Sequence record: NC_106597.1
Reading direction: 5' to 3' (one strand)
Source: Escherichia phage BB1
Length of the DNA stretch: 64,000 bases
This document shows, one piece after another, positions 4,221 through 57,114 of the stretch (within the stretch, counting starts at the first letter, position 1; every line of letters begins with the position of its first letter). The position numbers and the translations under genes are program-made. The notes beneath the pieces are model-generated. The model was not told the origin of the DNA, did not search any database, and saw only the letters and a list, made by a program, of their open reading frames with translations.

Positions 4221-4253
4221 AAGGGGAGGGGGCTATGCTCCTTCCCCTTTTTG
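4221..4253 (+). terminator. rho-independent terminator
   Basis: AAGGGGAGGGGG...CCTTCCCCTT followed by T-run. Confidence 0.7.
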
Positions 4254-4285
4254 CATTTAGAAGGCACGAAAGCGTGCAAAGGAGA

Positions 4286-6645: not shown

Positions 6646-6671
6646 TAGTCCTAAATAACTGAGGAGCTACT

Positions 6672-7001
6672 ATGGAATATGTATATATTTATGCGGATGT
6701 TCCAGTGTATGATAGTATAACACACAAAGAGGTTAAACTAGAGCGGTTTACAACACTGGAGTCCCTTAATAAACGAAAGAATTTCCATTTATTTGGTGAT
6801 CCTAAATTACCTGCATCTTATATTTACTTTAAAGTAAAAGATACAGGTCAAGAGGTATACCTAACATATGATTGGGCTGTTGTAGAAAATACTGAGCAAT
6901 CTATGAAAGCGCTAGATGCTTTTCTGCGTATAGATGAAGAATTTCGGGTACTAGAAAAGCAGCGCAATGAAATGCGTAAATTACTTCACACCTATAAATA
7001 G
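6672..7001 (+). CDS. hypothetical protein
   Basis: ORF with GAGGAG RBS. Confidence 0.5.
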   Translation: MEYVYIYADVPVYDSITHKEVKLERFTTLESLNKRKNFHLFGDPKLPASYIYFKVKDTGQEVYLTYDWAVVENTEQSMKALDAFLRIDEEFRVLEKQRNEMRKLLHTYK

Positions 7002-7004
7002 TAT

Positions 7005-7033
7005 TTGCTATTATCCCAATATTTTGATATAAT
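7005..7033 (+). promoter_or_regulatory. sigma70-type promoter upstream of DNA polymerase
   Basis: -35 TTGCTA 7005-7010, 17-bp spacer, -10 TATAAT 7028-7033. Confidence 0.6.
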
Positions 7034-7094
7034 ATATTGGTAAGTTAGAGAAGAAACACTGAAGTTATACTTACTTACCAAGAGGAGATTAAAT

Positions 7095-9662: not shown

Positions 9663-10152
9663 TTTCAAATTGCCCGTATATGCTTTACGGGCGTTTGTAT
9701 CAATTGAGCAAGAAGGTGATTATTCCGTAATTACAACAAGATATAATAAATATGTGCTAGATAATAGGAAGTTGCCTGGCACATTTTCTCAACGTAGGCT
9801 TATTCTATTTGAGAAACGGAAAGAATTACCATACAAGCTCTATCCTATTAGAGGTAGAATATCAATGTTGTCCCAATTAGTTGGGTCAAAGCGTAGCCAA
9901 TTTATAGATTCTGATGGAAATCTTATTAACTGGAAGAAAACTACGTTCTATGATGTTGTCACCTCTAAAGTTTTGCATTCAGCTAGAATCTATAACGGAA
10001 AATACCAATGCTATGTAGCTAAAGTTCCATATCCATTTGTATTATCCTATGTTCCAGCTTATATAAGCTATATTCTGGTAAATAATAGCCCTGTTATTTA
10101 TCAAGTCCATCAAGAGGAGCCTGAAATTCCTAGACTTAGAATAAAATTATGA
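9655..10152 (+). CDS. hypothetical protein
   Basis: GTG-initiated ORF overlapping the polymerase stop; AT-rich codon usage. Confidence 0.4.
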   Translation: MLNFKLPVYALRAFVSIEQEGDYSVITTRYNKYVLDNRKLPGTFSQRRLILFEKRKELPYKLYPIRGRISMLSQLVGSKRSQFIDSDGNLINWKKTTFYDVVTSKVLHSARIYNGKYQCYVAKVPYPFVLSYVPAYISYILVNNSPVIYQVHQEEPEIPRLRIKL

Positions 10153-42063: not shown

Positions 42064-42545
42064 TACTTCTTACCTCCAGTAGCTAGGGAAGTAATTAAGT
42101 CCATGTAGTTTTGATCCCCGGCTCCAGCAATAATATTATTCTGGATATTGGTCTGACTAGCAGGAGCTCGGACGGCAGCTTTAGCTTTTTCTAGCTCCAC
42201 CATCATTTTCATCTCTTCCATCTTCATTTTATGTGCCTTCCATAGAATATCCATAATATCCTGGTCAGAACCCATGCCAGTTTCTTCCAGTTCCTCCAGC
42301 TTACGTTTAATAACTTCATCTAGAACACCGAACAAACGATCTCTGTTACGGAAACCACTTTCCATAAAAATATCGTTTAAATAGTTCTTAACTTCACTAC
42401 GATTCATAATATCTCGGAAAGCAATTTCGGACATTCCAAGACTACGTGCGGCAGAAGGCACATCGCTACCACACTGTAAATAAGCTTCAATTACATCCAT
42501 CCCTTCAGGGGACATAAGATCTGGTACTAATACATCATTTGCCAT
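42063..42545 (-). CDS. terminase small subunit (putative)
   Basis: 160 aa with N-terminal HTH-like segment ([21 protein letters not shown]); directly upstream of large subunit. Confidence 0.5.
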
Positions 42546-42555: not shown

Positions 42556-44328
42556 TTAGGTAAGGCGTTGAACTGTTACTCGTAGTCTCGGTAAGAAAAC
42601 TGCAGAACCTAAACTAACGTGTAGTATAACACCTAATTCTGCATTACCATTACCAAGATTTTTTATTGTATATATAAAACTGTTTCTACTAAAAGCTCCG
42701 CTATCTGGAGTATATTTATAAGCAGAAGTAGTATGGAAAGGCACTAATTTTCCAGGAGGAAGAACTAAAATTTGGTGAAATATAGCATCCCCTCCCGTAT
42801 AACTTTGTGATTTTCTTCCTTGCACCTGAAAAACACTACCATTCCACGTATTTACTGGTAACCCAGCAACATTAAGGTTACCCGATAATATTTCACTAGT
42901 TAGTATAACAGTAGAGTTATTATTTGGTAGGCCTAGTCCAACTGTTGCTAGTGATTTATAAACATTACCAGTGCCCGGATAGGTCGGAGTAATATCATTA
43001 CCAATATAGGCACTAGCCACATTACCGGATAATAGGCGTAAAGGTATTGATGAAGGTCCCCAGACAACACCATTCTCATTACCAATAGTATTATTATTAG
43101 AGTTTACATACCAGGTCTTACTAGCAGAGAACTTATAAATACTAAGTTGTGCTCTTGTACCACTATAGTTGACTGGTGCCCATATAGATCCTTTGTTAGA
43201 GCATACAAATTCACATCTTCCAGTAGTATCCCCAAACACCCCACCATGCGCAGCGTTTACTCCAATATACTCCATATCAGCACGAGAACTTAGATTCCCT
43301 AGAGCATTCTGATTAATAAACTTCCAACCAGTAGTAGATAACTTAACTCCCTTAATAGTAAAGTTGGACGGAGAAATTATTATGTCAGAACCTGTAAAGG
43401 GATTGCTAGAAACAGACATACTACCATTAGAATACCTTAGGTTCAGCACATACCATATAACTTTTGTAGGGGTTACTCCATAACCATCTTGAACTATTTT
43501 TGTATTAGCTGATTGACTTACTAACTTAGTAGTAGAACCTCTACAAACATATCTATACCCACCATCACTAAAGTGCTGTACTATATTGCTAGGGATTGTT
43601 TGTTTGTATCCAGCATACCCCCTAATATTAGAATTACATACATAAAACCAGTTGTGCCCACGTTTACCAGCCCCCATTGGAGCCATCCAGTTAGGATCCC
43701 AATAGTACGTATCACCTGAAGATATAGGAACAGAAGTACTTCCTATAGGATACCCTAGTTGTTTGAAAGTTTCAGCTACAGTAGCACCTACAGGTGCACC
43801 ACCACCTGGTCTTACAACACCATGATAAGTACTATGTAGTACAGTACCGCCAGTACCACTTCTAGCTATAGATTCTTCATGCCCTAGAGAACTATTATAG
43901 GAATAAGTACCTGAAGCTAGACTATTACCAAAAGCAAATCCAGCAGTTTGACTTAAGCTAGCAAATGATCTAAAAGGATCGGCCTGAGGATCGGCCTGAG
44001 TAGAAGAAAGAAACTGCCCAACTTGAGATTGAGTACCATTCAAAAAACCACGATGGGTACCATTAACTTCTATAGCTGTTAGTATAACTCTACCAGGATC
44101 ATTACTCTTTAAGTTAGCTATTGCAGAAGGCATCTGGCATACATAGAAACCATTCCCAGCACTACTTAATGCGCTCTCATAAGTGCTTTCTACTAATACG
44201 AAGGGCATATCAGAATGAAAAATAGTATTAGTACTAGGGTTTTTATGAGCATTAATATCTCCACCACTAGCAGTATTTAGTGATAATACAGTTTTACCAT
44301 CACTATATTTTCCAGCGAAAAAACCCAT
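42556..44328 (-). CDS. receptor-binding protein (pb5-like); receptor not determinable from sequence
   Basis: 590-aa ORF at the end of the late operon, divergent from an llp-like lipoprotein gene. Confidence 0.55.
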
Positions 44329-44413: not shown

Positions 44414-44680
44414 ATGAAAAAGTTTGTGATTGCACTAGTTGCCGCAGTTATGTTATCTGGTTGTGCACCTGCTCCCAAACCATTTTGTACAGGATTTGTA
44501 AAATCTTTTGGTGGTGTGGGAGAAGAACATTACGGTCTCAAGGTTCAAAAAGTTCGTATTAAGGGAGATCGCTTTCCAGTAGTACAGCTCCGTACTAAGT
44601 TTGGATGGTGGGATCTCAGTCAGTTTGACCTTAAATATGGTGATTGTAAATTTAAACTAGAACAATCTAATTACCTGTAA
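44414..44680 (+). CDS. llp: lipoprotein, Llp-like (receptor-blocking superinfection exclusion)
   Basis: Signal peptide with lipobox LSGC; divergent from receptor-binding gene; driven by a T5-type consensus promoter. Confidence 0.7.
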   Translation: MKKFVIALVAAVMLSGCAPAPKPFCTGFVKSFGGVGEEHYGLKVQKVRIKGDRFPVVQLRTKFGWWDLSQFDLKYGDCKFKLEQSNYL

Positions 44681-44727: not shown

Positions 44728-45066
44728 TTGGATGGTGTACTGGCAGAAAACACTATGCAAGAAAATGAGAAGCCCTTCCAGGAACCCATGCCACTTGAGA
44801 TGAATCCTAGGGCAAAAGCAGTTCATGATGCAATTAATGAAATCATTCAGGATGTCATACAAGACACTATGGAAGATGTAATGGGAACATCATTTCTTCT
44901 AGAAGAATCTGGATTTGATGAAATGATGGATCTCGTAGGAACAGTTATAATGGTTCGTGCAATTGCTAGAATATTCCAAATACCACATTTACGGGAGCAT
45001 GAAAGACATGTCAAACGGCAACAAAAGAAAGAACAGGCGCGGAGAAGTGTACGAAGCGTGGATTAA
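44728..45066 (+). CDS. hypothetical acidic protein
   Basis: ORF; start uncertain (ATG 44728 or 44755). Confidence 0.35.
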   Translation: MDGVLAENTMQENEKPFQEPMPLEMNPRAKAVHDAINEIIQDVIQDTMEDVMGTSFLLEESGFDEMMDLVGTVIMVRAIARIFQIPHLREHERHVKRQQKKEQARRSVRSVD

Positions 45067-45245
45067 CATTTACGGATTTGGCTTTGTATTATTCCTAATC
45101 TTCGTAGGTTTTTGGTTAGCAGCTATGGCGGGGTGGATCTAATGGAATGGGTAATTATTGCACTACTGGGGATTGTGATTATTGGGCAGTGTATTTTAGA
45201 TAATCACTTAGCTAGAATTGAAACCTTACTATCGGAGAAACGTAA

Positions 45246-45440
45246 ATGATGGAAGTGGCAGTTACACTAATAGTAATATTAGTCTGGGTAATCCTCATTG
45301 CCTCTCGTATCGTGTATATTCGCCTAAAAACTCTAGAAGCCCAGGTAAAACAACAACAAGTTGCGCTAGAAAAGCTAGTACTACTGCAACGGTGTGATAG
45401 CACCCGTATTCTGCAAATTGAGAAGGAATTAGATGTTTAG
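45246..45440 (+). CDS. small membrane protein
   Basis: N-terminal hydrophobic helix then coiled-coil-like tail. Confidence 0.35.
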   Translation: MMEVAVTLIVILVWVILIASRIVYIRLKTLEAQVKQQQVALEKLVLLQRCDSTRILQIEKELDV

Positions 45441-45678
45441 TATTGTAATTGCTTTTATTATCGGGATACTCGCTGGAGTTTTCGGGACGACTGCGGCAAT
45501 CAATAAGCATCGGGAATATATTGCGGGAGTGACGCGGGAGATTGCGGAAAGGGAGCGGAAGTTTGACGAGAAACGTGCGGAGTTTGAGCGGAAGTGGTCG
45601 GATGGATCTCGGGCGTCGCGGAAGAGATTCCGTGAGTTCAGACCAGAACACAGGTTTGATGACCCTTCTATGCGCTAA
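45433..45678 (+). CDS. small membrane protein
   Basis: N-terminal TM helix, basic C-terminus. Confidence 0.4.
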   Translation: MFSIVIAFIIGILAGVFGTTAAINKHREYIAGVTREIAERERKFDEKRAEFERKWSDGSRASRKRFREFRPEHRFDDPSMR

Positions 45679-45843
45679 TTTGGAAATCTCGAAATTTCAT
45701 AAGATTACACATGGAGGTGTGCCCAGTGGGTCGGGGGAGAATACTTAGTCTGCTAACCGCCACCCCCCGTTACTATTAGCAGGGTAATTGTTTCATCCTG
45801 CAACCATTTTAATCGCAGGATGAAATTATTTCAACTTTAATTA

Positions 45844-46578
45844 TTACGCAACTTTTAATTTCTCAATATATTGTTGCGGGCTGCAACTATATTCTGCGCG
45901 TTCTTCCTCGGTCATACCTTCCCAGCATAGTTTTAAACGGTCAGCTAGGAATTGATAATCATTATCATCGTCGAGCGATTCATCAATAAAGGTTTCACCT
46001 ATTAATGTTACACCTATTGATAGAATATCATTAACGGCTTGCGCGTCCAGCGTTTTAAATCCGTATGATGCTGCCGCCGATAGCACACCTTTATGATCAT
46101 CAATCATTGTAAAATCAGCGTTCGGATATAACTGTTTAAATAATTCAAAATAATAAGATTTATATACTGCGTCTTTGCTGTGGTATATTTCGCTAACTTT
46201 ATCAGCTTTAAAATATTTATGCAGTGTGTCGCGGGAAAATACGCGGATATTGCTATTTCCTCGACCTCGCAAGCCTTGTTTGCGCAAGAAATAATAGTCC
46301 GACTTACTCATCAATCGAGCGGTGCAAATAATGTTTAAAGTATTTGCATCATTCATGCACTGGCGCATATATTCAACCAATGGCAATAAAGTATCTTGCA
46401 TTATTAAATGATGTTTGCAGGCTTCATTTTTATATTTATTTAAATCTAAATTGCCCTCATTATCAAAGCAAGGCGCTACACGATGGAAAGAATTAACGAT
46501 AGTGCCGTCTAAATCCCAAATCATGACGCGGGAAATATGCGGGAAATTACGGAAAGAATTAATAATAGATTTATTCAT
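45844..46578 (-). CDS. dmp: HAD-family 5'-deoxynucleotidase (Dmp-like)
   Basis: HAD motif I near N-terminus (MIWDLDGTIVNS); 244 aa; GC-richer codon usage. Confidence 0.7.
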   Translation of the reverse strand: MNKSIINSFRNFPHISRVMIWDLDGTIVNSFHRVAPCFDNEGNLDLNKYKNEACKHHLIMQDTLLPLVEYMRQCMNDANTLNIICTARLMSKSDYYFLRKQGLRGRGNSNIRVFSRDTLHKYFKADKVSEIYHSKDAVYKSYYFELFKQLYPNADFTMIDDHKGVLSAAASYGFKTLDAQAVNDILSIGVTLIGETFIDESLDDDNDYQFLADRLKLCWEGMTEEERAEYSCSPQQYIEKLKVA

Positions 46579-46657
46579 TTGTTACGTTCTCCATTAAAGG
46601 GATTTAGTTATTTCAGCATTACCCGCTATTTATAAGCGGGTAATAATAAATTAACTA

Positions 46658-47053
46658 TTAAAGACCATAAGCCAACGCATCGGCAATAAAACTAACATCC
46701 TCACCTGATACGCTGGAACGAATACCAGCACAAGTATATACTTTTGCACTGATCAATTGATCATCAAGGCAAGCGGGGCAAGGCGCGACAACTGCAAAGG
46801 CAAGGCCGGATTTTACGGCGTCGATGATAATCGTTTCTTGCTTCACCGTATCAACATAAACACCTTTTGCTTTAATATGACTGGTTAGTTTGCCCTGCGT
46901 ATATGCGAATGTTGTAACCTGTAAAGCGTCATTGAAATCTAATAGATCATCAATAACATGCCCCGCCTCGACGTGGTAACGTTCGCCGTTAGAATAAACC
47001 AGAACAATTGAGGATTGAGCGCGGTCAAATGGGATGCGATTAGATTTAGCCAT
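46658..47053 (-). CDS. pre-early hypothetical protein
   Basis: 131-aa ORF with GGAG RBS; preceded by GC-rich hairpin. Confidence 0.5.
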   Translation of the reverse strand: MAKSNRIPFDRAQSSIVLVYSNGERYHVEAGHVIDDLLDFNDALQVTTFAYTQGKLTSHIKAKGVYVDTVKQETIIIDAVKSGLAFAVVAPCPACLDDQLISAKVYTCAGIRSSVSGEDVSFIADALAYGL

Positions 47054-47089
47054 GTTTATAACTCCAGTTATTTTAATAAGGAATTTAAT

Positions 47090-47347
47090 TTATTTGATAA
47101 TAATCTGCATTTGGTACGGCGTTAATTCACCGTTTACGGGTAAATTATTATCACTCAACCATTCATAAAAAGCGTCATCATCATCAAAAGGAACAACATC
47201 ATTATCACGATAATCGACCGTAATAATACCATCAGTATTAGTTTTAGCGGCTAGGATAGGCCCGAAGCTGTAAACTTTATCGGATTCCATTTCATCCGGT
47301 GAAATGAATGCTTTTTCGTCCAATGTTTTGGGTAGTGTAACTTTCAT
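47090..47347 (-). CDS. pre-early hypothetical protein
   Basis: Start moved to ATG 47347 (AGGAG 7 nt upstream); track ORF begins at TTG 47380. Confidence 0.45.
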   Translation of the reverse strand: MKVTLPKTLDEKAFISPDEMESDKVYSFGPILAAKTNTDGIITVDYRDNDVVPFDDDDAFYEWLSDNNLPVNGELTPYQMQIIIK

Positions 47348-47401
47348 TTTTTGACTCCTGTAATAGCGGCTATATTTCAAGCCGCTAGGGGAATAATTTA
47401 A

Positions 47402-49066
47402 TTATGCGAAGAATTTACCATTCTTAAAGTCGATCAAAGTACGCTGACCGTTTGCATAGGTAATTAAATGCGTTTGCGTCCAGCTTGACGCGCCAACGTT
47501 GTAACCCATATCCAGACTACCAGCTACTCCAGCGGTATAAACGCCACCGTAAATGCTAGCGGTATGGGTGTGTCCCGTGTTTAGCTTGCCCAATTTCTTA
47601 AACTGTTTAGGATTGCCACGACTGCCGTTAATGCCGTTGTGACCGTGTACACCGCACTCAATGCCTGCAATCTTGAAAGATTGGTCAGTGGTTAGGAAAA
47701 TGGCGTTAAACTCACAACCTGCAACCTTGCGCAGCGCATAATCTAGCACGTTAAAAGTATCATCATGATCACTGATCGCCGCGTAAATTGCAGCATTCAG
47801 GCGGTGATATAGTTCGGCGTTGGCTGGATCGTCTTTGATGTTAGCATTACGATCATCTAACCAGCGGGATAGCGCCAAATCGTGATTAGATTCAACAATG
47901 ATTGTTTGAGAGAAATCACGTTCCATTGATTCCAGCACGCGCCCCGTATCGATAAGATCATCCAGAACTTTATCACGTCCAGCGGCATACTGTTTTGCTA
48001 GGAATACACCGGATGCACGGTTATGATGATTGCGCGATGTAAAATCATGCACGTCATGAATAAACTGATATTTAGGTTTAAGAATATCAAGCAAGCTATT
48101 TTCGCCAGCCCATGACGCAACGGCACAATCATCATCTAATTTTTCGGCGTGAATATCGCCATATTGCAAGCCTAAAACATGCCCCGACGTTTCATAGCAT
48201 CCAGCAGGAGTAGCGCAAACATTCAGATCATAAAACACCCCGCTTTCATCCATCGTTTCAAGCTGGCGAACAAAAAATTCCCCGTCGTCGTCGAACTCAA
48301 CAATAAGCGCACCGAAGTTATGCAGCGCCTCGGCCTTTTGTCCTGCTTTCTGCTGAATGTAGTTTTTGAGCGTTGCCGTTCCGGTTGAATACATACGGCG
48401 CACTACTTCACCTTTTAAAGCTGGCACGCTTTCAGCGGTAATTTTAGCGTGACCAATTGCCAGCCCTTCAATATTTAAAGCCGTTGCAGTTTCTGCAAAT
48501 CCTGAAAGCGGATAGTCTGCGGTAGGCAAAACATTAATTTCAGCCATGAAAGCAAAACGGCGGTTATTTAAAAACACGTTTTTGCTGCAAATATATTTAT
48601 CAAATGCGGGATCGTATTTGATACCGTCTGCACCTTCTCCATTCTGGAAGCCGTTTTTATTATAAATATACTTAGAAACAAGCAAATCAGCACCGATATA
48701 TTCAGCGAATTTTTCCAGACTTGCTAAAAAGTTTTTATGTGGGAAAGTATTATTCTGAATCGACGTAATAATAAAGCGTTTACCCTGTTTTACTTCCCAT
48801 TGCTCAACCGTACTAGAAACAATCCCCGCCGCTTCTGGGCGCTCATCGTTTTTAATGGCTTTTGCTACTTTTGCCGCTTTCGGTTTAGCTGGTTTATTTG
48901 CTTCCAGCCAGTCGCAGATAGCGGTTGAATGCTTCGTTGTATCGTAGACCGCTTTTGATATATCGTCGCAGACTTCCAGTTTAGTAGCGCGCAGACGTTT
49001 ACCATAGAAATTAAAGTCAGCGGCCATTTTCAGGATAACGGTTTGTTTTTCTGCGGAAATAATCAT
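47402..49066 (-). CDS. A1: A1-like pre-early protein with metallophosphoesterase motifs
   Basis: 554 aa; GDIH, SNHD and GHTH motifs in calcineurin-like order. Confidence 0.65.
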   Translation of the reverse strand: MIISAEKQTVILKMAADFNFYGKRLRATKLEVCDDISKAVYDTTKHSTAICDWLEANKPAKPKAAKVAKAIKNDERPEAAGIVSSTVEQWEVKQGKRFIITSIQNNTFPHKNFLASLEKFAEYIGADLLVSKYIYNKNGFQNGEGADGIKYDPAFDKYICSKNVFLNNRRFAFMAEINVLPTADYPLSGFAETATALNIEGLAIGHAKITAESVPALKGEVVRRMYSTGTATLKNYIQQKAGQKAEALHNFGALIVEFDDDGEFFVRQLETMDESGVFYDLNVCATPAGCYETSGHVLGLQYGDIHAEKLDDDCAVASWAGENSLLDILKPKYQFIHDVHDFTSRNHHNRASGVFLAKQYAAGRDKVLDDLIDTGRVLESMERDFSQTIIVESNHDLALSRWLDDRNANIKDDPANAELYHRLNAAIYAAISDHDDTFNVLDYALRKVAGCEFNAIFLTTDQSFKIAGIECGVHGHNGINGSRGNPKQFKKLGKLNTGHTHTASIYGGVYTAGVAGSLDMGYNVGASSWTQTHLITYANGQRTLIDFKNGKFFA

Positions 49067-49156
49067 AGTAATAAAACTCCATTAAAGGGATTAGATTAAT
49101 AACGGCAATATTGCCAAATATAACGCCTCAAATAATAGGCGTTATAATTTGCAACA

Positions 49157-49354
49157 TTAATTTAAAGGCACTAGGCTAGAACTAACACCACAAGCAACGG
49201 CAGCGATAAAACAAAGCAAGCCCAAACGTTTTGCTAACTTAGATTTACGTTTAAAATAATATGAATCTAAATCATTTTGAAAATAAGCAAATAATAATGA
49301 GGCCGCCATAATAAACAAGCCTAGAATTAATGATTCAGTAGGAAAGAAAATCAT
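49157..49354 (-). CDS. small membrane protein (two predicted TM helices)
   Basis: 65-aa ORF with conserved upstream RBS element. Confidence 0.4.
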   Translation of the reverse strand: MIFFPTESLILGLFIMAASLLFAYFQNDLDSYYFKRKSKLAKRLGLLCFIAAVACGVSSSLVPLN

Positions 49355-49445
49355 TTTTTAAAACTCCTGATTTAAGGGAAGAAAATAACTATCGCTAAAC
49401 AGTTATATTATTGCCCCCTCACTAAAAGGGGGCAAGGTATAACTA

Positions 49446-49853
49446 TTATTCGCCTGCGGCTTGTTTTACTTCATCGGCAACGCCTAACAGTTGCGCTACT
49501 GCGTCCAGCGTTTCAAGTTTTGCACTTTCCAGACTTGCCAGATCGTCGGCGTCTTTGATAATGCCGGAATCAATAGCATGTTTAGCGATAACGCGCACAT
49601 AGTGAGCTTTACGCACAGAGCTACCGCCACCAACTTTACGCGGCTTATCGCTTTTTTGATAGGCTTTTGCACTGGTCAATTTTGAGCGAACGGATACAGG
49701 GGAAGCCGCGCCAACTGCTTTTGCAATCTCTTTTAAACCGTCGCTATTTGCGAAATCTAAACCGTTTTCATTAATTAACTGCTGATACATGGAAACAGCT
49801 TTCTGAGTGTTTTCTTCATTCCATGCGAATTTTGCGGTTTTAACGTTAGTCAT
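49446..49853 (-). CDS. putative DNA-binding protein (A2 candidate; shares motif with ORFs 300..710 and 3436..4203)
   Basis: 135 aa; basic stretch KPRKVGGGSSVRKAHYVR and HTH-like motif; conserved upstream RBS element. Confidence 0.4.
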   Translation of the reverse strand: MTNVKTAKFAWNEENTQKAVSMYQQLINENGLDFANSDGLKEIAKAVGAASPVSVRSKLTSAKAYQKSDKPRKVGGGSSVRKAHYVRVIAKHAIDSGIIKDADDLASLESAKLETLDAVAQLLGVADEVKQAAGE

Positions 49854-49951
49854 GATATAAACTCCTATTAGTTTAATTTAAGGGATTAGATTAACTTAAT
49901 GTTAATCGTTATATCCCCCTGAAATAAGGGGGATATAAAGTTAACACTAAA

Positions 49952-50203
49952 TTACAGAACAGCTTCCCATTTTTCGTTACGTTGAACAACCTTTACAACG
50001 TCGCCGGATTTAACGCGAACGTTAAAAACAGGTTTGCCGTTGTTACTACGTTCATTTTCAACATATACCGCGTCGATTGTATCAAACGGCATAAGCGCCG
50101 CGCCTTTAATACGTTCGGCCTTTCCGGTTAATTCATCCGTTTTAGTAACGAAAGGAATAAAAACGGATTGACCAATTTTTGGCGCGGTAATAACGTTTTG
50201 CAT
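49952..50203 (-). CDS. pre-early hypothetical protein
   Basis: 83-aa ORF with GGAG RBS; downstream of a large palindrome. Confidence 0.45.
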   Translation of the reverse strand: MQNVITAPKIGQSVFIPFVTKTDELTGKAERIKGAALMPFDTIDAVYVENERSNNGKPVFNVRVKSGDVVKVVQRNEKWEAVL

Positions 50204-50227
50204 AATATAAACTCCGAGTTATTTGGT

Positions 50228-50278
50228 GGATTGTTCCGCATTACCTGCTAGAAAGTAGCAGGTAATAAGTAACAATCC
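50228..50278. repeat. 51-bp compound palindrome
   Basis: GGATTGTT-CCGC-ATTACCTGCTA-GAAAG-TAGCAGGTAAT-AAGT-AACAATCC. Confidence 0.6.
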
Positions 50279-50406
50279 GCTCGCCAGTATAATCGATTTA
50301 AAGAACTCCACGTAGGCCGCTATATCCCAGTTAGGGGGCGGGATGCATTATGGTAAGCACCGACCGTCAAATTTTATCAAGTTATCGCTCTTATCGAACT
50401 GGGTAC

Positions 50407-50435
50407 ATCTTAAAACCTATCGGCTAGGTTGTCAA
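50407..50435 (-). promoter_or_regulatory. candidate sigma70 promoter for leftward pre-early transcription
   Basis: Minus strand -35 TTGACA (50430-50435), 17-bp spacer, -10 TAAGAT (50407-50412). Confidence 0.3.
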
Positions 50436-50635
50436 GCGGTTTTTTGCAGTTTTTTATGATTTTCTTTCAAGTCAATCATAATATTTCGCCAGATCATTTC
50501 TAAACCTTGCTGGCGACCTTTCTTGTACTGCGTGAATCTATATTTTACTGATCTTTGTGCTACTGTCAACAAGTTTTTTGTTTTGCTATCTAGTGCCTTA
50601 ATAGGCTTGCCAGTGATCAAAAGCGTTTGTTTCAT
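50432..50635 (-). CDS. hypothetical basic protein
   Basis: 67-aa ORF, first gene of the leftward operon. Confidence 0.35.
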   Translation of the reverse strand: MKQTLLITGKPIKALDSKTKNLLTVAQRSVKYRFTQYKKGRQQGLEMIWRNIMIDLKENHKKLQKTA

Positions 50636-51082
50636 ATCGTCGATTCCTTATAATGAATAAGTTTACCGCCGATAGGCTTTAAGATGTACCCAATTTTTAA
50701 AGAGCGTGGCGGTAAACTTCCCGCCGTGTAGTTCGTCATTGCCGCCCTACGAAATAAATAATAGGGGATTCCCGAAAATGGCGCAACCTTATTTTTGTAA
50801 AGAAACGTAAAGACACGATCCACCGGACGGCGTGCGGCGACGGCCTAAAATTAAAAGAAACGGGCGCGCGAATACCACAAAACATAGCAAATAGGCAAGT
50901 AATTTTTTCATTTATATTTACTTTGCCCTACTTGACAAAACCTAAAAAGCTCGTGACAGCGATAAACGGCTTATCCCTTTATGATGAGATGGCTAAAAAC
51001 TTCATCGCGTTCTAGGGCGTTTTAGGCGCATTCTAGCCTTGTTGATAACTTATCCCCAGAAGCAAAAATGAAATTTTCCTAG

Positions 51083-51115
51083 TTATCCACTTGACTTTTA
51101 TTTTCCAGTGGATAA
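51083..51115. promoter_or_regulatory. inverted pair of DnaA-box-like 9-mers
   Basis: TTATCCACT ... AGTGGATAA separated by 15 bp. Confidence 0.5.
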
Positions 51116-51398
51116 CTACTTATTTTATAAAATAAATTAATTGACTTTTATCTGTTAGTATGCATCGGAAAGATAGCAGACTAATAATTGCTAGGATGAT
51201 AATCATGCTGGTGGATTGTAACGGCTTAAATTATTAGCAGACTATTAATCACGGAAAATCTCATTAGCCAACTAACTATTTCATGATATATAATATACTT
51301 ATAAATTAATGAGAAATAATAATTATAATAAATAATAACTACAGTAAATAATAACTATAAGAAACTATCGGCCTAAGTGAGAACCACTATCATTTAAG

Positions 51399-51505
51399 TT
51401 ATTCACAACGTTATCCACAGCACAAAATAATTTGACACGATAGGCGGCGATATAAGGACTTTTGCACAGACTTATCCACAGGTTATTCCACTGTATAAAT
51501 ATACA
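51399..51505. promoter_or_regulatory. three direct DnaA-box-like sites plus CTGTATAAATATACA motif
   Basis: TTATTCACA, TTATCCACA (51411-51419), TTATCCACA (51472-51480), motif at 51491-51505. Confidence 0.55.
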
Positions 51506-51773
51506 AGGTAAAAAGGTAGTGTTAACAACTGCAATCAATTTTGAGCGGCCTAAATCGCATTCTAACGAGCTAAACGCTGCGGAGTAATATTAAAGTAAAG
51601 CCTTAATGCGGCGGCCTGGTGGCTTCACCGTGTTTTGCTCTTTATTACACCGCTGCGCGGTTAGCATAAAATTAGACGCTAGGCAAGGAAAATAAAAAGG
51701 TAAAATAATATTTGCCTATGCTAGAAAATTACCTTTATCATTCACTCACCGATTAACGAGGGAGGCCGAACAA

Positions 51774-52769
51774 ATGAGGCTGTATAAACCAGATAACGCA
51801 ACCGTCTTAAAAGGTGCATTGCGCAACCTGCTGGAGGGTAGCAAGTCAACCAGCATTAAACATTTTATTAACAAGGCTGAAACTATTCATCAAAACTTTT
51901 TTGATGATTATGACGGTTATGATATAGATAGTTTTCTACCACTATATAAGCAAGGGGCAACGCTTGTTTTATATAACCGTGATTGCCATATCTTTACAGG
52001 CAGGGGAGCGGGGCCGGATGCCGATTTTATTATTGCGCAGGGCAATAATATTGTTGCGTATCATAGCAATTCAGGCCGTCAATCATTTAATATAAATGGT
52101 TTTGAGCTTATTGGACTTGATCTGATAAATGGACTTTCTAGTATTGAGGGATTTTTAAATGTTATCTGGAAGTATTTACCCGCTGGATGGCATAAGCCGG
52201 ATAATGACGGATCTCAATATACCGCTATAATGGCTTTTGATGGCGACGGTAATTTTTTGTTACCACGGGAGCTATACCCGTATATTTATGATGGGGATAT
52301 TGAAAGCGCTGGTTTTTCTTTCTGGAAAGATGAAGATCAGATTATTGACAGTATAGAAAACCATGCTGTAAATTCTAACACTCAAACTACTGAAAACAAA
52401 GGAAAAAATACCATGACTAAGATTGCTAACATCGTTGCCGCTAATAAATCCGCTGTTGTAAATGCTGCAAAACTGGAGGCGGGTAAAATTGCATTAACTC
52501 AAATCACGAAAGTAGCGGCTAAAAAAGCGCCGTTTATGATTAAAGGTTATATTGATACGCCGATTGGTCGTGTAGTGATCGCTAACCTGCTAAGTGTAGC
52601 GGTTGACCAGTACGCACCGAGTAACCAAAAGGCGAAAGCGGTAGCAGGTGCAGCTATGGAGGCGGCAATGTTGGAAATGGTGCAAAGTTTTAACATCGCT
52701 GAAATGATTGATGAAATGGTAAAAGGTATTGATATTTCTACTTTTACCACTAGCACCGAAAGCGAGTAA
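51774..52769 (+). CDS. hypothetical protein
   Basis: 331-aa ORF with GAGGGAGG RBS; followed by GC hairpin. Confidence 0.5.
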   Translation: MRLYKPDNATVLKGALRNLLEGSKSTSIKHFINKAETIHQNFFDDYDGYDIDSFLPLYKQGATLVLYNRDCHIFTGRGAGPDADFIIAQGNNIVAYHSNSGRQSFNINGFELIGLDLINGLSSIEGFLNVIWKYLPAGWHKPDNDGSQYTAIMAFDGDGNFLLPRELYPYIYDGDIESAGFSFWKDEDQIIDSIENHAVNSNTQTTENKGKNTMTKIANIVAANKSAVVNAAKLEAGKIALTQITKVAAKKAPFMIKGYIDTPIGRVVIANLLSVAVDQYAPSNQKAKAVAGAAMEAAMLEMVQSFNIAEMIDEMVKGIDISTFTTSTESE

Positions 52770-52834
52770 TAATAACTAGCGGGGATTATTTCCCCGCTTT
52801 ACTATTCCCTTGTTAACTAATAGGAGGCTAATAA

Positions 52835-53329
52835 ATGGCTGAGGAAAAATACGGCTTCTCGCTAGGGGAAGTGAGCACGGCTAAACACGATATGATCATT
52901 TTAGTCGATTGTCATACAGGTTATTGCGGAGAAGGTTGGACGGAGGAACATTTTGTTCCTGCTGGTACGGATCTGGACGCTTTCGCTCATGAAATGGCTG
53001 TTGATAATGCTTCTCGTTTTGGTAGCGATGGCTATGAAGACGAAGAAACTGGCGAATGGTATGAAAATGAAAACGTATATGCAAGCCTTTATCATTATCA
53101 ATTAAGTAAATCCGGCACATATGTAAACGGCGGCGATCCTATTAATTCCGTCATGAAATTAATTATTAAACATGGTGGCGTCGAGATAATTGATAACAAA
53201 GCGGTAATATATGCAAACCGATTAAAACAGCTTATTTATATTCCTGATAGTACCCGATGGGAGGAATATGCTGTTTTGCATGACGAATTAAAACGATGTT
53301 TCAATATTGAAGCCTTACAAGTAGTCTAA
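52835..53329 (+). CDS. hypothetical acidic protein
   Basis: 164-aa ORF with AGGAGG RBS; followed by terminator-like hairpin. Confidence 0.5.
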   Translation: MAEEKYGFSLGEVSTAKHDMIILVDCHTGYCGEGWTEEHFVPAGTDLDAFAHEMAVDNASRFGSDGYEDEETGEWYENENVYASLYHYQLSKSGTYVNGGDPINSVMKLIIKHGGVEIIDNKAVIYANRLKQLIYIPDSTRWEEYAVLHDELKRCFNIEALQVV

Positions 53330-53342
53330 TGTAAAGTTTTGT

Positions 53343-53371
53343 AAAGGTCGCCTTTTATGGTGGCCTTTTTT
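53343..53371 (+). terminator. terminator-like hairpin with G-U wobbles
   Basis: AAAGGTCGCC-TTTTAT-GGTGGCCTTT then T-run. Confidence 0.4.
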
Positions 53372-53434
53372 GTTATAATGCCTTTACACCAAAACGGTGG
53401 ATTGAAAATTTTCCCAAAAATTTGGAGGCTTAAA

Positions 53435-53665
53435 ATGGTTGCTTATTCTTCTGCTAGTCATCTGTTTACCGCGCAAGGCTGGGTATCTAATCGTGCTGTC
53501 ATCTATGAAATGGTGCAGGAGTTCGGCATTGCTAAAACCTATAATACCATTCAGGAACTATATAACGCCGATAAAATCGATCAGCAAACGGCTGGCTTTT
53601 TGCTGGATACCCTGAAAGCTGAACATTGCACTAAAAAACAAGCCGCTAAAATTGTTTTAATGTAA
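53435..53665 (+). CDS. hypothetical small protein
   Basis: Start moved to ATG 53435 (GGAGG RBS); track ORF starts 53357. Confidence 0.45.
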   Translation: MVAYSSASHLFTAQGWVSNRAVIYEMVQEFGIAKTYNTIQELYNADKIDQQTAGFLLDTLKAEHCTKKQAAKIVLM

Positions 53666-53714
53666 TTAATAACGGGGCGATACTTTCGCCCCGATAACTA
53701 GGAGGCTATCACAA

Positions 53715-53864
53715 ATGGTTATTTTTCGATCTATTTTAGCGGGTATCTTGGGCGCTATTTTATCGTTATTTGCGATAGCTTTCGGCGTTCACGCTGTTAT
53801 TATTGGCGCTGGCATTGCCGTATTTTCTTATCTGTTAGGCTGCATGACTAGTAAAGGAGAATAA
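53715..53864 (+). CDS. small hydrophobic membrane peptide (49 aa; not in supplied track)
   Basis: ATG preceded by AGGAGG; translation MVIFRSILAGILGAILSLFAIAFGVHAVIIGAGIAVFSYLLGCMTSKGE. Confidence 0.45.
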   Translation: MVIFRSILAGILGAILSLFAIAFGVHAVIIGAGIAVFSYLLGCMTSKGE

Positions 53865-53866
53865 AA

Positions 53867-54079
53867 ATGATTCGTAACGTTTCCCTTGCACGTTCGAAAG
53901 GCTTTAAGCTGGTGGATGTAAACACGTTTGAGCGGGAAGATTGTAAAATCGAATATGTAGCACGTAACAAAAATGCCTTTCGTGTTACCGAGAAAAAATT
54001 CGACAAGCGCGGCAACGTGATAGCTGAAACAGTTAAACATTTTGCCACCTTTTATGCTGCCTTTCGTGGGGTGTTATAA
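53867..54079 (+). CDS. hypothetical small protein
   Basis: ORF with AAAGGAG RBS. Confidence 0.45.
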   Translation: MIRNVSLARSKGFKLVDVNTFEREDCKIEYVARNKNAFRVTEKKFDKRGNVIAETVKHFATFYAAFRGVL

Positions 54080-54080
54080 A

Positions 54081-54425
54081 ATGGTTATTTATGAAGGCAA
54101 TCGCTTTGTTGCTAATTGCCGTCCGGCATTATTAGCAAACTATTTAAATCAGCTTTCCCCAGCCTATAAGGGCGTTATTAATATTTATGAGGGCAAGGCG
54201 CATTATAAAATTAATGCGGTCGTTGCCCGTGAACTAGCGTTTCAATTTTTGACTTTTGCATCTTGTGACGTTCAGGTTATGGGGGAAGCATTAATTGCAG
54301 AAAATGAAGAGGATTTTATTAATATTTTCCGTAAGGTATGCACTGAGCGCTTGATAATGAAAGGCGCGTATATTCAATCAACTGCGGAAAGTATTGAAAC
54401 AGCATTTCGAAAGGTGGCGCAATGA
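54081..54425 (+). CDS. hypothetical protein
   Basis: Start moved to Met14 of track ORF 54042..54425 to remove overlap. Confidence 0.4.
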   Translation: MVIYEGNRFVANCRPALLANYLNQLSPAYKGVINIYEGKAHYKINAVVARELAFQFLTFASCDVQVMGEALIAENEEDFINIFRKVCTERLIMKGAYIQSTAESIETAFRKVAQ

Positions 54426-54491
54426 AATTATATATTTTCGTTGGTAATAGTAAGGCCGCTATTGGCAAAAATATATTTACTAGTGGTTATT

Positions 54492-54686
54492 ATGAGCAAT
54501 AAAATTATTGTTACCAAAACCAGTACAATGGTTGATGTTTTTTACGTTCCCGATACGCCGGAAAACCGACAAGCGGTCGAGCGTGGCGAGTATGATAAAG
54601 TGATTTATGATCACGATGGTTATTATCAACATTTGGTGGATTCCTACGGGGAGGAGGAAAAAATCACGCACCGACTACCAGACTAA
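54492..54686 (+). CDS. hypothetical small protein
   Basis: Start moved to internal Met (MSNKIIVTK); last gene before the repeat block. Confidence 0.35.
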   Translation: MSNKIIVTKTSTMVDVFYVPDTPENRQAVERGEYDKVIYDHDGYYQHLVDSYGEEEKITHRLPD

Positions 54687-54726
54687 TAATCACAGGGCAC
54701 AACTACTAGGAAGTGCCCCCCAATTC

Positions 54727-54751
54727 TCAAATGAGAATGATTCTCATTTGA
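54727..54751. repeat. perfect 25-bp palindrome
   Basis: TCAAATGAGAAT-G-ATTCTCATTTGA. Confidence 0.6.
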
Positions 54752-54944
54752 CCGCGCCCGAGATGGTTAGCCTGCTAATGGTTAGGGTGTTACGTGTCGC
54801 CTTGTGTGATCGTTAGCGAGCTAACCAATTTTTAAGCCTCCTCCAATTTTGCCATTGTTTTAGTATCCCCGCCAAAATTAAACGCGTTAGAATGCGATCT
54901 AGGACGTTTTAACGCTATATTAGAACTATTCACTGCGCAGGAAT

Positions 54945-55053
54945 ACTGTATAAATATACAGTAGGATAAGCTGTGGATAAGTCTGTTAATAACGCCTCAA
55001 AATGGCTAGGATTCTGTCAAGTCAAATCGTGCTGTTAATAAGTCTGTGGATAA
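54945..55053. promoter_or_regulatory. two DnaA-box-like sites in opposite orientation plus palindrome ACTGTATAAATATACAGT
   Basis: Palindrome 54945-54962; TGTGGATAA at 54972-54980 and 55045-55053. Confidence 0.55.
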
Positions 55054-55079
55054 CTTAAATAACAGTGTTTCTCACTTCC

Positions 55080-55260
55080 ATTCTTAAATGCAAATTATTA
55101 TCATTTGTATTTCACTATCTAACTAATAATCATTTCACTTTTTAAATGAGAATCGTTTCACTTCCTGAATAATTTTCATTTCACTTTTTAAATGCGAATG
55201 ATTCTCATTATCATTCCGCTTTTTAAATGCGAATTATTATCATTATCATTCGCATTCAGG
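55080..55260. repeat. degenerate tandem repeats of a ~30-bp unit containing TTTAAATG(A/C)GAAT
   Basis: At least four copies read directly. Confidence 0.55.
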
Positions 55261-55264
55261 CTAG

Positions 55265-55280
55265 CAGGGCAATTGCCCTG
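55265..55280. repeat. perfect 16-bp palindrome CAGGGCAATTGCCCTG
   Basis: Read directly. Confidence 0.6.
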
Positions 55281-55287
55281 CGCTTTT

Positions 55288-55886
55288 GTGCAAATCCGAC
55301 ATTGCTCCATGGGTGTTACGTGCGGGCGTGTATGTGCGAATCCGACAATTTTTGGTAGTGTGCAAATCCGACCCGAAAAATTTTTATAGTGTGCAAATCC
55401 GACAATGAATTTTCCTAAAAACTCCAGCAATCACGAACTGCGTTCGAATCCTGTGGGGTATGTGCAAATCCGACATGGTTTTTCTAGGATTAAGATGTGC
55501 GAATCCGACAAGATTTTTGTGACTTCGATTGGAGGGTGTGTGATTGTGTGAGTTTGGGGAGAAGTTGAAAGAGTGAGAGAAATTTGGGGGAACTGCGGGA
55601 GGGGTGCATGTTTGGTGCGGAGCACCTGATTTGCGGGGATTTTGTGGAAGAGTTGAGAAGATTTGGGTTAATTTGAGATAAGTGCAGATAAAGTAAAATT
55701 TTATTAGCTAAATGGGGCAAAATAGCTTGACAAGTGAAAATTTCTGTGGCTCCAAAAACTCAGGCAATCATGGGCCTTCGGCCCGAAATAATGCTGCCGT
55801 TTTCAGGAGATTATATGTTCCTAAAAACTTAGGCAATTGTGCAAATCCGACCAGTTTTTAAACTCTTGTCAGTGTGCAAATCCGAC
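55288..55886. repeat. eight direct copies of 13-mer GTGC(A/G)AATCCGAC, irregular spacing
   Basis: Copies start near 55288, 55334, 55360, 55391, 55462, 55497, 55839, 55874. Confidence 0.7.
55500..55700. other. C-depleted G/T/A-rich tract (~200 bp) with strong strand asymmetry
   Basis: Almost no C on + strand; GGGG/GTGTG runs. Confidence 0.5.
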
Positions 55887-55926
55887 AGTAATTTCTAGAA
55901 ATGTGTTTTGGAAAAATGTCTTCTAG

Positions 55927-55968
55927 AAATAACCGCCCTCCCAATAACCGCCCTGTATTAACCGCCTA
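55927..55968. repeat. three closely spaced direct repeats (A/T)TAACCGCC(C)T, iteron-like
   Basis: Copies near 55929, 55945, 55959. Confidence 0.5.
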
Positions 55969-56385
55969 TTGCTGGAGTTTCTAGGAATATGAAAACCGCC
56001 TAAGTTGACTAGAGTTTTCCTAGAAACTTAGGAGTCTAGAAGAAAGTGTTGTGCCATCCTAGCAGATGAGCGGCAACAGGTGTATCATCTTGAACACAAA
56101 TATTGCCTTTAAATATTATAAGGTAAATAAAAGTTAATATACCCCCATTTCATGAGAGTTAGTCCCTCTAGGCGCGTGCGATTTGATACATCCTCCTGAG
56201 TCTCGGGGAGGAAGAACAATTGACGAGAACCTGCGAACAGAACCGTCATCAAGTGTTTTCCTACGAGGAATGATGTAAATCTACGGCCTAGAGGTAAAAA
56301 CAAGTTGATGTTTTTAATCTATGAGATTATTATAACACATTATTCTCACGAATGTCAAGCAAATTTCGTTACTTTTAAATTTTCG

Positions 56386-57114
56386 TCATGAGTTTGGAGT
56401 TGGGTAAATTTTTATGCAACCTTGACTTAATAGATATTTTTCTGCCTCTACAGCTTTAATATTGAATATCTCTTTTGCTCCATCGAATTTATAATGATTA
56501 GCAAATTTATTCTCGAAAAATTTATGTGCTTGGTGTTCTATTTTGTAAGCAAGTTCTTTCGATCCTTTCTTGTACTGGTAGATACCAAATACTTCCATAT
56601 CTTCAAAACCCGGCACACGCAATTTATCATACTCTAGATTCTTAAACCTTTGATGTGGCTCTCTAGAAACCCCAATCTTTGTCTTTAATTTCTTCCTAGA
56701 CTGATCTTTATTAGAGAAGATATAGAGATATGTGGGAAATTGAACATCTTCTTCTACTTCCGGTTTCTCGATAGGTGTATTGAGGTTGCTTTCTCTAGCA
56801 CATTGTAAACAACCGTGCCCATCTAGGTGAGATCTAGCAGTTTGCATAAAGTATCCTTTATGCTTATAGCACCATATCTCTACTAACTGATTGGCTGTCT
56901 TATAATTAACTCTTTCATACCCATACTCTTCTTTCTGGACTTTTAAAGCTTTCCTAATAAAGATAAGGTTTAAGGCCTCTTGTTGGAAGTCAGGGTGAAG
57001 TTGCCTAATCTTCGTTATATTAGTAGAGCCATTTGACTTCAAAAAGTTTTTAAGAGGAAACCTCCTGGCTTCCTCGCGTAGCTTTTTATTAATTTCAGCA
57101 CGTAAATCATCCAT
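56386..57114 (-). CDS. hypothetical protein; possible GIY-YIG-like nuclease-related domain
   Basis: 242-aa ORF; weak resemblance (YLYIFSN...KIGVS) to GIY-YIG patterns, plus Cys/His cluster HLDGHGCLQC. Confidence 0.35.
   Translation of the reverse strand: MDDLRAEINKKLREEARRFPLKNFLKSNGSTNITKIRQLHPDFQQEALNLIFIRKALKVQKEEYGYERVNYKTANQLVEIWCYKHKGYFMQTARSHLDGHGCLQCARESNLNTPIEKPEVEEDVQFPTYLYIFSNKDQSRKKLKTKIGVSREPHQRFKNLEYDKLRVPGFEDMEVFGIYQYKKGSKELAYKIEHQAHKFFENKFANHYKFDGAKEIFNIKAVEAEKYLLSQGCIKIYPTPNS

Follow-up and report, generated by a model that had tools for sequence, protein, structure and literature searches.

The window analysed here, a stretch of 64,000 nucleotides from Escherichia phage BB1 (NC_106597.1), was matched by 514 records of T5-like relatives (Tequintavirus), with top identities of 92-94%. 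At positions 45720..55752, it contains a block of 10,033 bp that corresponds to the terminal repeat, or first-step-transfer (FST) DNA, of these phages and is present as a single copy. On the left, the late-gene end was formed by terS (42066-42545; 97.5% identical to T5.156), the receptor-binding protein (RBP) gene (42556-44328) and a lipoprotein gene (44414-44680). These were followed by plus-strand genes for small membrane proteins resembling T5.159-162 (45020..45675; 77-94% aa identity), and the DNA homologous to this flank is unique in T5, where it adjoins the right repeat only. On the other side, the early genes begin at 56.4 kb. The block had been placed between the late module and the early genes in an earlier sequence-only reading, which also described Dmp-like and A1-like genes within it and repeats at its end, and all three features were recovered.

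The pre-early genes followed the order and orientation seen in T5, which are common to dmp, A1, A2 and the homologues of T5.002,.005,.007,.008,.009,.011-.015 and.017 (67-100% aa identity). The leftward genes, including dmp, A1 and A2, are all encoded on the minus strand, with dmp closest to the left edge. The dmp gene, encoding a deoxynucleoside-5'-monophosphatase (45844..46578), was full length and displayed 93% aa identity to T5.001. It is followed by a T5.002 homologue of unknown function (46658..47053; 95%) and by a small ORF from the ORF list at the position of T5.003 (47090..47380). For this ORF, tblastn detected no similarity to T5.003 and no Pfam family was found, while a CDS is annotated at the matching position in Escherichia phage vB_EcoS_MM-1. 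The A1 gene, for the DNA transfer and host-DNA degradation protein, was located at 47402..49066 (94% aa identity to T5.004; 99.6% to the A1 of MM-1). Beyond it lie the small membrane protein homologous to T5.005 (49157..49354; 95%), the gene for A2, the DNA-binding protein required for second-step transfer (49446..49853; 98.5% aa identity to T5.006), and the homologues of T5.007 (49952..50203; 89%), T5.008 (50432-50635; 88%) and T5.009 (50635-50739; 94%).

A non-coding divergent control region with no ORF of at least 40 aa, equivalent to T5 Repeat Regions 1-2, extends over 50886..51773, and the hegG insertion was absent from it. Promoter-like sites were enriched in 50100-51900 (15 against 5.6±2.4 in shuffled sequences), and divergent promoters are annotated at the homologous position in the T5 record. 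The rightward genes start on the plus strand with the T5.011 homologue (DUF7566; 51774..52769; 88% aa identity; Pfam PF24450, E = 7e-109). The next gene, a 164-aa ORF (52835..53329, plus strand) with no Pfam family, is found at the same place in MM-1 (CDS0017) and is absent from T5, whose alignment skips from 52773 to 53326. The rightward pre-early operon (53357..54686, plus strand) comprises the homologues of T5.012,.013,.014,.015 and.017 (83%, 67%, 100%, 94% and 92% aa identity, respectively), of which the T5.014 homologue is the Ung-abasic-site nicking endonuclease; T5.016 was missing from this operon.

The right end of the block is occupied by a dense repeat region (54817..55895) that aligns to T5 9317-10608, annotated there as 'iss', and thus corresponds to the injection-stop-signal region, or T5 Repeat Region 3. 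It is composed of repeat families D1-D4 and runs about 140 nt beyond the repeat edge at 55752. Within it, a 131-nt IRD'-spacer-IRC' arm (54947..55077; DnaA boxes TGTGGATAA) is 73% complementary to its long-range partner, the 131-nt IRC-spacer-IRD arm in the control region (51375..51505), which carries paired DnaA boxes such as GTTATTCACAACGTTATCCACA. The T5 arm is likewise 131 nt in length, and its IRC/IRD, DnaA box and DRD layout has been described (Davison, 2020). Five plus-strand copies of the DRD-type repeat TGTGCAAATCCGACA, belonging to family D2, were located at 55286..55518; seven copies were found overall, with two at 55837-55895, outside the terminal repeat. A major nick site of the Pu/GCGC type is predicted on the minus strand at 55280..55284, with the cut between 55283 and 55284. 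The predicted nick sequence, CCCTGCGC/TTTTGTGCAAATCCGACA, has the same context as the annotated T5 nick at 9748/9749, for which the T5 record gives the consensus 5'-NPu pGCGCN-3', and the distance from the predicted nick to the right repeat edge is 469 nt here compared with 471 nt in T5. Both phages have the control region, the inverted-repeat pair with its DnaA boxes, DRD repeats that continue past the edge, and the same nick context.

The edges of the block were transferred from relatives by homology, with a nucleotide identity of 85-94% at the junctions. In the alignments, position 45720/45721 corresponded to base 1 of both T5 (NC_005859) and MM-1 (PV577657), and position 55752 to the final base of both records. 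The records of SP15, GEC_vB_N7 and GEC_vB_N5 likewise begin at 45720, and that of Shivani at most 2 nt away; the MM-2 record has its last base at 55752, which is also where PP941779, deposited in the opposite orientation, begins. Left of 45720, matches were confined to the T5 sequence preceding the right repeat (T5.159-162), while right of 55752 they were confined to the T5 sequence that follows the left repeat. No second repeat copy and no tandem join were found within the window. A single copy that has unique DNA of the left genome end on one side and of the right end on the other points to a collapsed, circularised (circularly permuted) assembly, in which the copies from the two ends would have been merged into one and the sequence closed into a circle. 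Sequence comparison thus supports the identification of 45720-55752 as a collapsed long direct terminal repeat of a T5-like phage, as had been proposed. In virion DNA, the repeat would stand at each genome end. A concatemer junction would likewise be expected to show one repeat, with the late end on one side and the early start on the other. The terminus had been predicted at 45.7-45.8 kb, which agrees with the edge at 45720. The inner edge had been predicted at 55.8-56.1 kb, a rightward error of 50-350 nt that stems from the true edge lying inside the repeat block, which continues past it. In T5, the repeat block similarly extends past the terminal-repeat edge (Davison, 2020).

A repeat of about 10 kb is textbook T5 biology and already known. 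The T5 repeat (NC_005859 1-10219 and 111532-121750) shares the late/early placement and, to the base, the edges of the block; it measures 10,219 bp in two copies, compared with 10,033 bp in one copy here, at a nucleotide identity of about 85-88%. The hegG homing endonuclease, T5.003 and T5.016 of T5 are lacking, and the 164-aa ORF (52835-53329) is additional. Among phages with annotated repeats (here LTR and RTR), MM-1 is the nearest, at 94% identity over the repeat. Both edges coincide and the extra ORF is common to the two phages; in MM-1 the repeat measures 10,407 bp and carries small insertions around window positions 54.08-54.7 kb, and the adjacent receptor-binding gene shows only 78% DNA identity. 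Short-read collapses of long direct terminal repeats of the T5, T7 and SPO1 types leave the same single copy with flanks from both ends, and most T5-like deposits of 104-114 kb present this collapsed arrangement, with nothing to set the present case apart.

The block had further been described as GC-richer, which proved marginal: its GC content (45700-56100) was 39.6% compared with 38.4% in the rest, and a sliding-window calculation ranked it 22nd of 268 equal-length windows, with the maximum at 40.6 kb. The GC-rich runs cited for it did not hold up either, as CGCCGCCG is absent from the whole window and GCGCGCG has a single occurrence, at 50864. A foreign GC island is effectively refuted by this ranking and by the presence of the block in all T5-like records.

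The compositional difference lies instead in short oligonucleotides, whose usage departs strongly from that of the other DNA and changes abruptly at both limits. The CpG odds ratio was 1.32 in the block and 0.70 elsewhere in the window; GCGC occurred 46 times in the block and 46 times across the other 54 kb; CGCC, CCGC and CGGC were 2.6-2.9 fold commoner in the block (Fisher p about 1e-20 to 1e-22); and AGAG/CTCT was observed 10 times, where 72 occurrences would be expected from the length. When three statistics were fitted blind with two change points, the domain ran from 45.1-45.5 to 55.3-55.5 kb (log-likelihood ratios 98-141), with limits no more than a few hundred bases from those of the repeat as mapped by homology. 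Codon usage differed accordingly, with AGA accounting for 2% of its synonymous codons in the repeat and 27% in the rest, CGC for 31% and 8%, and ATA for 9% and 23%. RSCU correlated with that of ordinary E. coli genes at 0.74-0.75 in the repeat and 0.34-0.40 in the rest. The avoidance of AGA, ATA, CTA and GGA and the use of CGC, GGC and NCG codons would raise CpG. In a recoding simulation, codon choice alone yielded 50 of the 56 observed CpG per kb, and rest-of-genome usage yielded 30; codon choice does not account for all of the CpG signature.

The same contrasts were observed beyond the window. Across the whole T5 genome, the CpG odds ratio was 1.31 in the repeat and 0.76 in the rest, and windows above 1.1 occurred only in the repeat. 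The CpG and codon signature is common to T5 and the window, and CpG, codon and CCWGG contrasts all recur in Klebsiella P3, Vibrio phi 3 and Vibrio Ceto, with the repeat limits of Klebsiella P3 and Ceto set by gene content, not annotation. The contrast was kept in the Vibrio phages even though their A1 is only 31-34% identical. The five phages do not count as independent samples, with about 87% identity between the window and T5. In their repeats pooled, CCWGG occurred 7 times against 54 Markov-expected (o/e 0.13), compared with an o/e of 0.77 in the rest. No report of a compositional contrast between FST DNA and the rest was found in the searchable literature, and we regard the codon, CpG and CCWGG signature as a modest addition to the textbook repeat.

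By homology with T5, the FST DNA would enter the cell first, and transfer would then pause at the iss repeats. Host RNA polymerase would start from the central divergent control region and transcribe the pre-early genes, dmp, A1 and A2 among them, after which A1 and A2 would allow the remaining DNA to enter. All T5 tRNA genes are located in second-step DNA, including Arg-TCT, Leu-TAG, Pro-TGG, Thr-TGT and Val-TAC; the Gly(UCC) and Ile2(CAU) tRNAs were taken from the annotation of the T5 record, as ARAGORN made no call for either. The FST genes would thus be translated with the host tRNA pool alone, and we infer that the pre-early genes have host-like codons because the phage tRNAs arrive only with the second-step DNA. 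AAA, GAA, CAA, AGC and TGC are cognate to phage tRNAs, yet are used more in the repeat. T5-like DNA lacks Dcm methylation, and restriction is effective only at FST sites (PMC10644984). CCWGG-type sites may have been purged because host restriction would reach no phage DNA other than FST DNA. The motifs proposed to be purged are CCWGG throughout, together with GATC and GGCC in the case of Vibrio phage Ceto, and AGTACT, GGTACC and CTGCAG. There is about an even chance that Demerecviridae FST DNA forms a distinct evolutionary compartment, moulded by its position as the sole phage DNA active while the host is still undefeated, with codons tuned to host tRNAs and a stronger purging of restriction and nuclease sites. 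Taken as a whole, a collapsed FST repeat with T5-like entry and a signature shaped by tRNA supply and restriction is very probably the best explanation of the block.

The contrast might alternatively arise from regional mutation or recombination, or from avoidance of the target of an A1-dependent nuclease, which would make codon usage a by-product rather than a response to tRNA availability. This is rather unlikely, although several observations fit it. Non-coding repeat DNA also carries a CpG excess (odds ratio 1.11 vs 0.67) and an AGAG/CTCT deficit, and in the repeat genes GCGC (5.5/kb vs 3.2±0.6 in codon shuffles) is commoner, and AGAG/CTCT (0.58/kb vs 3.3±0.7) rarer, than codon choice predicts. 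Davison proposed that A1 cuts at sites missing from FST DNA. However, ATA, GTA, ACA and CCA, which contain no CpG and no AG/GA steps and are cognate to phage tRNAs, are avoided in the repeat as well. Under a maximal-order Markov model, GCGC was as frequent as expected (o/e 0.93), as was AGAG in three of the five phages, and second-step DNA is rich in the motifs avoided by FST DNA, yet survives. If one purged motif were what the phage's own A1-dependent nuclease recognises in host DNA, this would explain, following Davison's hypothesis, how FST DNA survives host-DNA degradation; we consider such an identity improbable.

It is very improbable that the record is not collapsed and holds one true internal copy, as in a phage that packages circularly permuted DNA by the headful mechanism or in a relative lacking terminal repeats. 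Only one copy is seen, and many T5-like deposits of 104-114 kb are the same, but these single-copy deposits are most simply understood as short-read collapses. T5-like phages with determined ends, which include T5, MM-1, MM-2, Shivani, EscoHU1, phiR2-01, DT57C, saus111K and BF23 (repeat of 9,743 bp by PhageTerm; PMC10644984), all have the repeat at matching positions. The end sequences are conserved here, and the iss, the predicted nick site, A1 and A2 for two-step transfer are intact. It is barely credible that the block was acquired horizontally, as an island or moron cassette of foreign composition with no relation to the genome ends. Its oligonucleotides and codons differ from the rest as strongly as in many acquired islands, and the set of genes varies to some extent (hegG, T5.003 and T5.016 missing, one ORF extra), but the block is syntenic and conserved across the 514 T5-like records, A1 occurs throughout Demerecviridae, the signature persists in Vibrio phages beyond DNA alignability where an acquired island would ameliorate, and the edges match annotated termini to the base.

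With the block read as a collapsed terminal repeat, the true genome would be about 10 kb longer than the collapsed assembly implies, and it would properly be written as a linear molecule that starts at 45720 of the window and carries a second copy of 45720-55752 at its right end. This affects gene counts, packaging-type calls and genome comparisons. The codon, CpG and CCWGG contrast can serve as a cheap FST marker that needs only sequence, has a precision of a few hundred bases and works in distant relatives. The avoided motifs provide a short list of candidates for the specificity of the A1-dependent nuclease. The contrast is consistent with phage tRNAs serving the genes delivered alongside them, and with an exposure to restriction that is limited to first-step DNA.

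The region at 45000-57000 matched 514 phage records in a megablast search, nearly all of them T5-like phages of Escherichia, Salmonella and Klebsiella (Tequintavirus and relatives), with the best matches being 92-94% identical. This indicates that the window derives from a T5-like phage identical to no deposited genome. Short records labelled as Listeria or Campylobacter phage (e.g. OR849067.1, 2.6 kb) also matched its T5-like DNA and are probably mislabelled or contaminant public contigs. The receptor-binding tail protein (42556-44328, minus strand) showed 30% identity to T5 pb5, and its DNA ∼78% identity to the MM-1 counterpart. The next gene (44414-44680, plus strand) encodes an 88-aa, llp/Cor-like lipoprotein with a lipobox. 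The phage receptor is probably one other than FhuA.

A single copy of the terminal repeat was located at 45720-55752 by homology to phages with defined ends. The T5 record (NC_005859) annotates a left repeat at 1-10219 and a right repeat at 111532-121750, and the MM-1 record (PV577657) an LTR at 1-10407 and an RTR up to the record end. In pairwise BLAST and alignments, base 1 of both phages fell at 45720/45721 and their final base at 55752. The records of SP15, GEC_vB_N7 and GEC_vB_N5 also start at 45720 and that of Shivani no more than 2 nt away, and 55752 is both the end of MM-2 and, in reverse orientation, the start of PP941779. Leftward of 45720 lie homologues of T5.159-162, which in T5 adjoin the right repeat only; rightward of 55752 lies sequence that in T5 and MM-1 is found after the left repeat only. 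No second repeat copy was found within the window, the sole outside match being a 58-nt DRD repeat just past the edge. A single copy between both kinds of unique DNA is the product expected of a collapsed, circularised assembly; a single repeat between both unique flanks is also expected at a concatemer junction. The sequence-only reading, which had proposed a collapsed T5-type repeat with a physical terminus at 45.7-45.8 kb, is thus supported by the mapped edges, the repeat-specific flanks and the single copy. Its terminus agrees with the mapped left edge. It had placed the inner edge at 55.8-56.1 kb, which is too far right because the repeat block overruns the terminal repeat.

The leftward operon of the repeat comprises dmp (45844-46578), T5.002, a small unmatched ORF, A1 (47402-49066), T5.005, A2 (49446-49853), T5.007, T5.008 and T5.009. 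The Dmp-like and A1-like genes anticipated in the block were confirmed at 93% and 94% identity to T5, with A2 at 98.5%. Characterised T5 proteins were used to assign these three identities because no Pfam-A model matched Dmp, A1 or A2, long-studied as they are. The rightward operon comprises T5.011 (DUF7566), an extra 164-aa pre-early ORF (52835-53329, plus strand), T5.012 to.015 and.017. The extra ORF, without a Pfam family, is present in MM-1 and not in T5, and the T5 alignment leaps from 52773 to 53326 across it; hegG, T5.003 and T5.016 were absent from the repeat in the window. Between the two operons lies a non-coding control region of ∼0.9 kb (50886-51773), and 15 promoter-like sites were counted in 50100-51900, against 5.6±2.4 in shuffles.

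A repeat search and comparison with T5 showed that the architecture of the injection-stop-signal (iss) region is complete in the window. An IRC-spacer-IRD arm of 131 nt (51375-51505), the same length as in T5, pairs with IRD'-spacer-IRC' (54947-55077), and both carry paired DnaA boxes. A/T-rich repeats lie at 55069-55256, and there are seven DRD repeats, TGTGCAAATCCGACA, five within the terminal repeat and two past its edge. The repeat block claimed for the end of the region was confirmed. In T5, Repeat Region 3 likewise runs past the terminal repeat, into unique sequence for 270 bp (Davison 2020). The context of the annotated major nick of T5, CCCTGCGC|TTTTGTGCAAATCCGACA, is identical in the window, and a minus-strand nick is predicted at 55283/55284, 469 nt from the repeat edge compared with 471 in T5. 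The repeat, iss, DnaA boxes, nicks and restriction limited to the first-step-transfer (FST) DNA have all been described in the T5-like phage literature, and the repeat adds one more example of a structure already known in detail. A reading of the block as a horizontally acquired foreign island was rejected.

The sequence-only reading had been drawn to the block as GC-richer. Its GC content was 39.6% (45700-56100) vs 38.4% for the rest, a 1.2-point gap inside the sliding-window spread; the block ranked 22nd among 268 equal-length windows, with the maximum at 40.6 kb, and high GC was rejected as the property that sets it apart. The claimed CGCCGCCG runs are absent from the entire window, and GCGCGCG, although present, occurs only once in it. 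The reading nevertheless picked up something real, as the block concentrates CpG-containing oligomers: it holds 28 of the 61 CGCG and 46 of the 92 GCGC occurrences, where its length predicts 10 and 15. Within the exact boundaries, the CpG odds ratio was 1.32 in the repeat vs 0.70 outside. CGCC, CCGC and CGGC were enriched 2.6-2.9 fold in the repeat (p about 1e-20 to 1e-22), and AGAG/CTCT numbered 10 where 72 were expected. When two change-points were fitted blind to CpG, to CGC/GCG and to AG-rich tetramers, they delimited a domain from 45.1-45.5 kb to 55.3-55.5 kb. The left change-points sit 260-660 nt outside the repeat edge (window 45060-45720), and the small T5.159-162-like membrane-protein genes therefore share the CpG-rich, AG-poor style; the 110-112.5 kb window of T5 hints at the same.

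Two motif-level explanations were rejected. Selection for nick sites (T5 consensus Pu|GCGC) as the source of GCGC enrichment was unsupported, since GCGC stood at an ordinary observed/expected ratio of 0.93 when the expectation came from a maximal-order Markov model of each repeat; the enrichment is a by-product of CGC/GCG usage. Similarly, AGAG/CTCT was discarded as a specifically avoided motif, since AGA/GAG depletion accounts for most of its scarcity. Counts lower than the Markov model predicts were confined to the window (10/23) and T5 (19/33), with no such deficit in the Klebsiella and Vibrio phage repeats.

Codon usage, counted on genes from a simple longest-ORF caller, differed markedly between the repeat and the remainder. 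AGA (Arg) fell from 27% outside to 2% in the repeat, ATA (Ile) from 23% to 9% and TCT (Ser) from 41% to 19%, and CGC (Arg) rose from 8% to 31%, GGC (Gly) from 11% to 34% and ACG (Thr) from 8% to 28%. The RSCU of repeat genes correlated at 0.74-0.75 with that of ordinary E. coli genes, and the RSCU of the remaining phage genes at 0.34-0.40. Likeness of the rest to highly expressed E. coli genes was rejected as the cause (0.35-0.39 vs 0.44-0.46 for the repeat). No tRNA genes were found in the window, and the T5 set was taken as a proxy for the phage's own. All T5 tRNA genes lie at 28-41 kb, in the second-step DNA; ARAGORN called Arg-TCT, Leu-TAG, Pro-TGG, Thr-TGT and Val-TAC among others, and Gly(UCC) and Ile2(CAU), which it did not call, were taken from the record annotation. 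These tRNAs match codons avoided in the repeat and favoured in the rest, the most strongly avoided of which, AGA, ATA, CTA and GGA, are rare in E. coli. Pre-early genes would be expressed before the tRNA-bearing second-step DNA enters the cell, and host-like codons would therefore be expected in FST genes. In a recoding simulation, codon choice alone gave 50 CpG per kb and rest-of-genome usage 30, against 56 observed, and the non-coding DNA had a CpG odds ratio of 1.11 in the repeat vs 0.67 outside. Genic GCGC and AGAG/CTCT also deviated from codon-shuffle expectation in the repeat. Codon choice would appear to be part of the cause of the signature, not all of it.

The contrast extended to other phages. 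In complete T5, the CpG odds ratio was 1.31 in the repeat vs 0.76 in the 101-kb unique part, and no non-repeat 2.5-kb window exceeded 1.05, the nearest being the ltf gene and a window running into the right repeat. The L-shaped tail-fibre gene ltf (T5 82.5-85 kb) was the only non-repeat outlier (GC 47.8%, CpG 1.03, 13 GCGC/2.5 kb), a composition consistent with mosaic acquisition. Repeat and rest gave 1.33 and 0.90 in Klebsiella phage P3, 1.00 and 0.69 in Vibrio phage phi 3, and 1.01 and 0.69 in Vibrio phage Ceto, with the repeat limits of P3 and Ceto set by gene content. The A1 proteins of both Vibrio phages share only 31-34% identity with that of the window; persistence of the CpG contrast at such divergence argues that the signature is upheld by a continuing selection or process, not by shared history.

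Restriction sites were also depleted. Across the five repeats, from Demerecviridae that are few and partly related, CCWGG (the Dcm/EcoRII site) occurred 7 times vs 54 Markov-expected (observed/expected 0.13; 0.77 in the rest). Only one of the 57 CCWGG sites in the window lies inside the repeat, at 51615, and none of its 20 AGTACT sites does; AGTACT, GGTACC and CTGCAG were missing or rare across all five repeats. GATC (41 expected) and GGCC (33 expected) were both absent from the Ceto repeat region (1-8300), and the remainder of that genome retains many of both, a pattern that looks like host-specific restriction-site purging limited to FST DNA. T5-like DNA lacks Dcm and Dam methylation, and restriction and CRISPR hit T5-like phages only via sites in the FST DNA (PMC10644984; Davison 2020); the avoidance seen in the repeats fits this published FST-limited restriction. 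No mention of a codon, CpG or CCWGG contrast between FST DNA and the rest was found in the literature consulted, which covers the older T5 work in part. The signature of codon usage and site avoidance conserved in FST DNA is a by-product finding, modest but testable.
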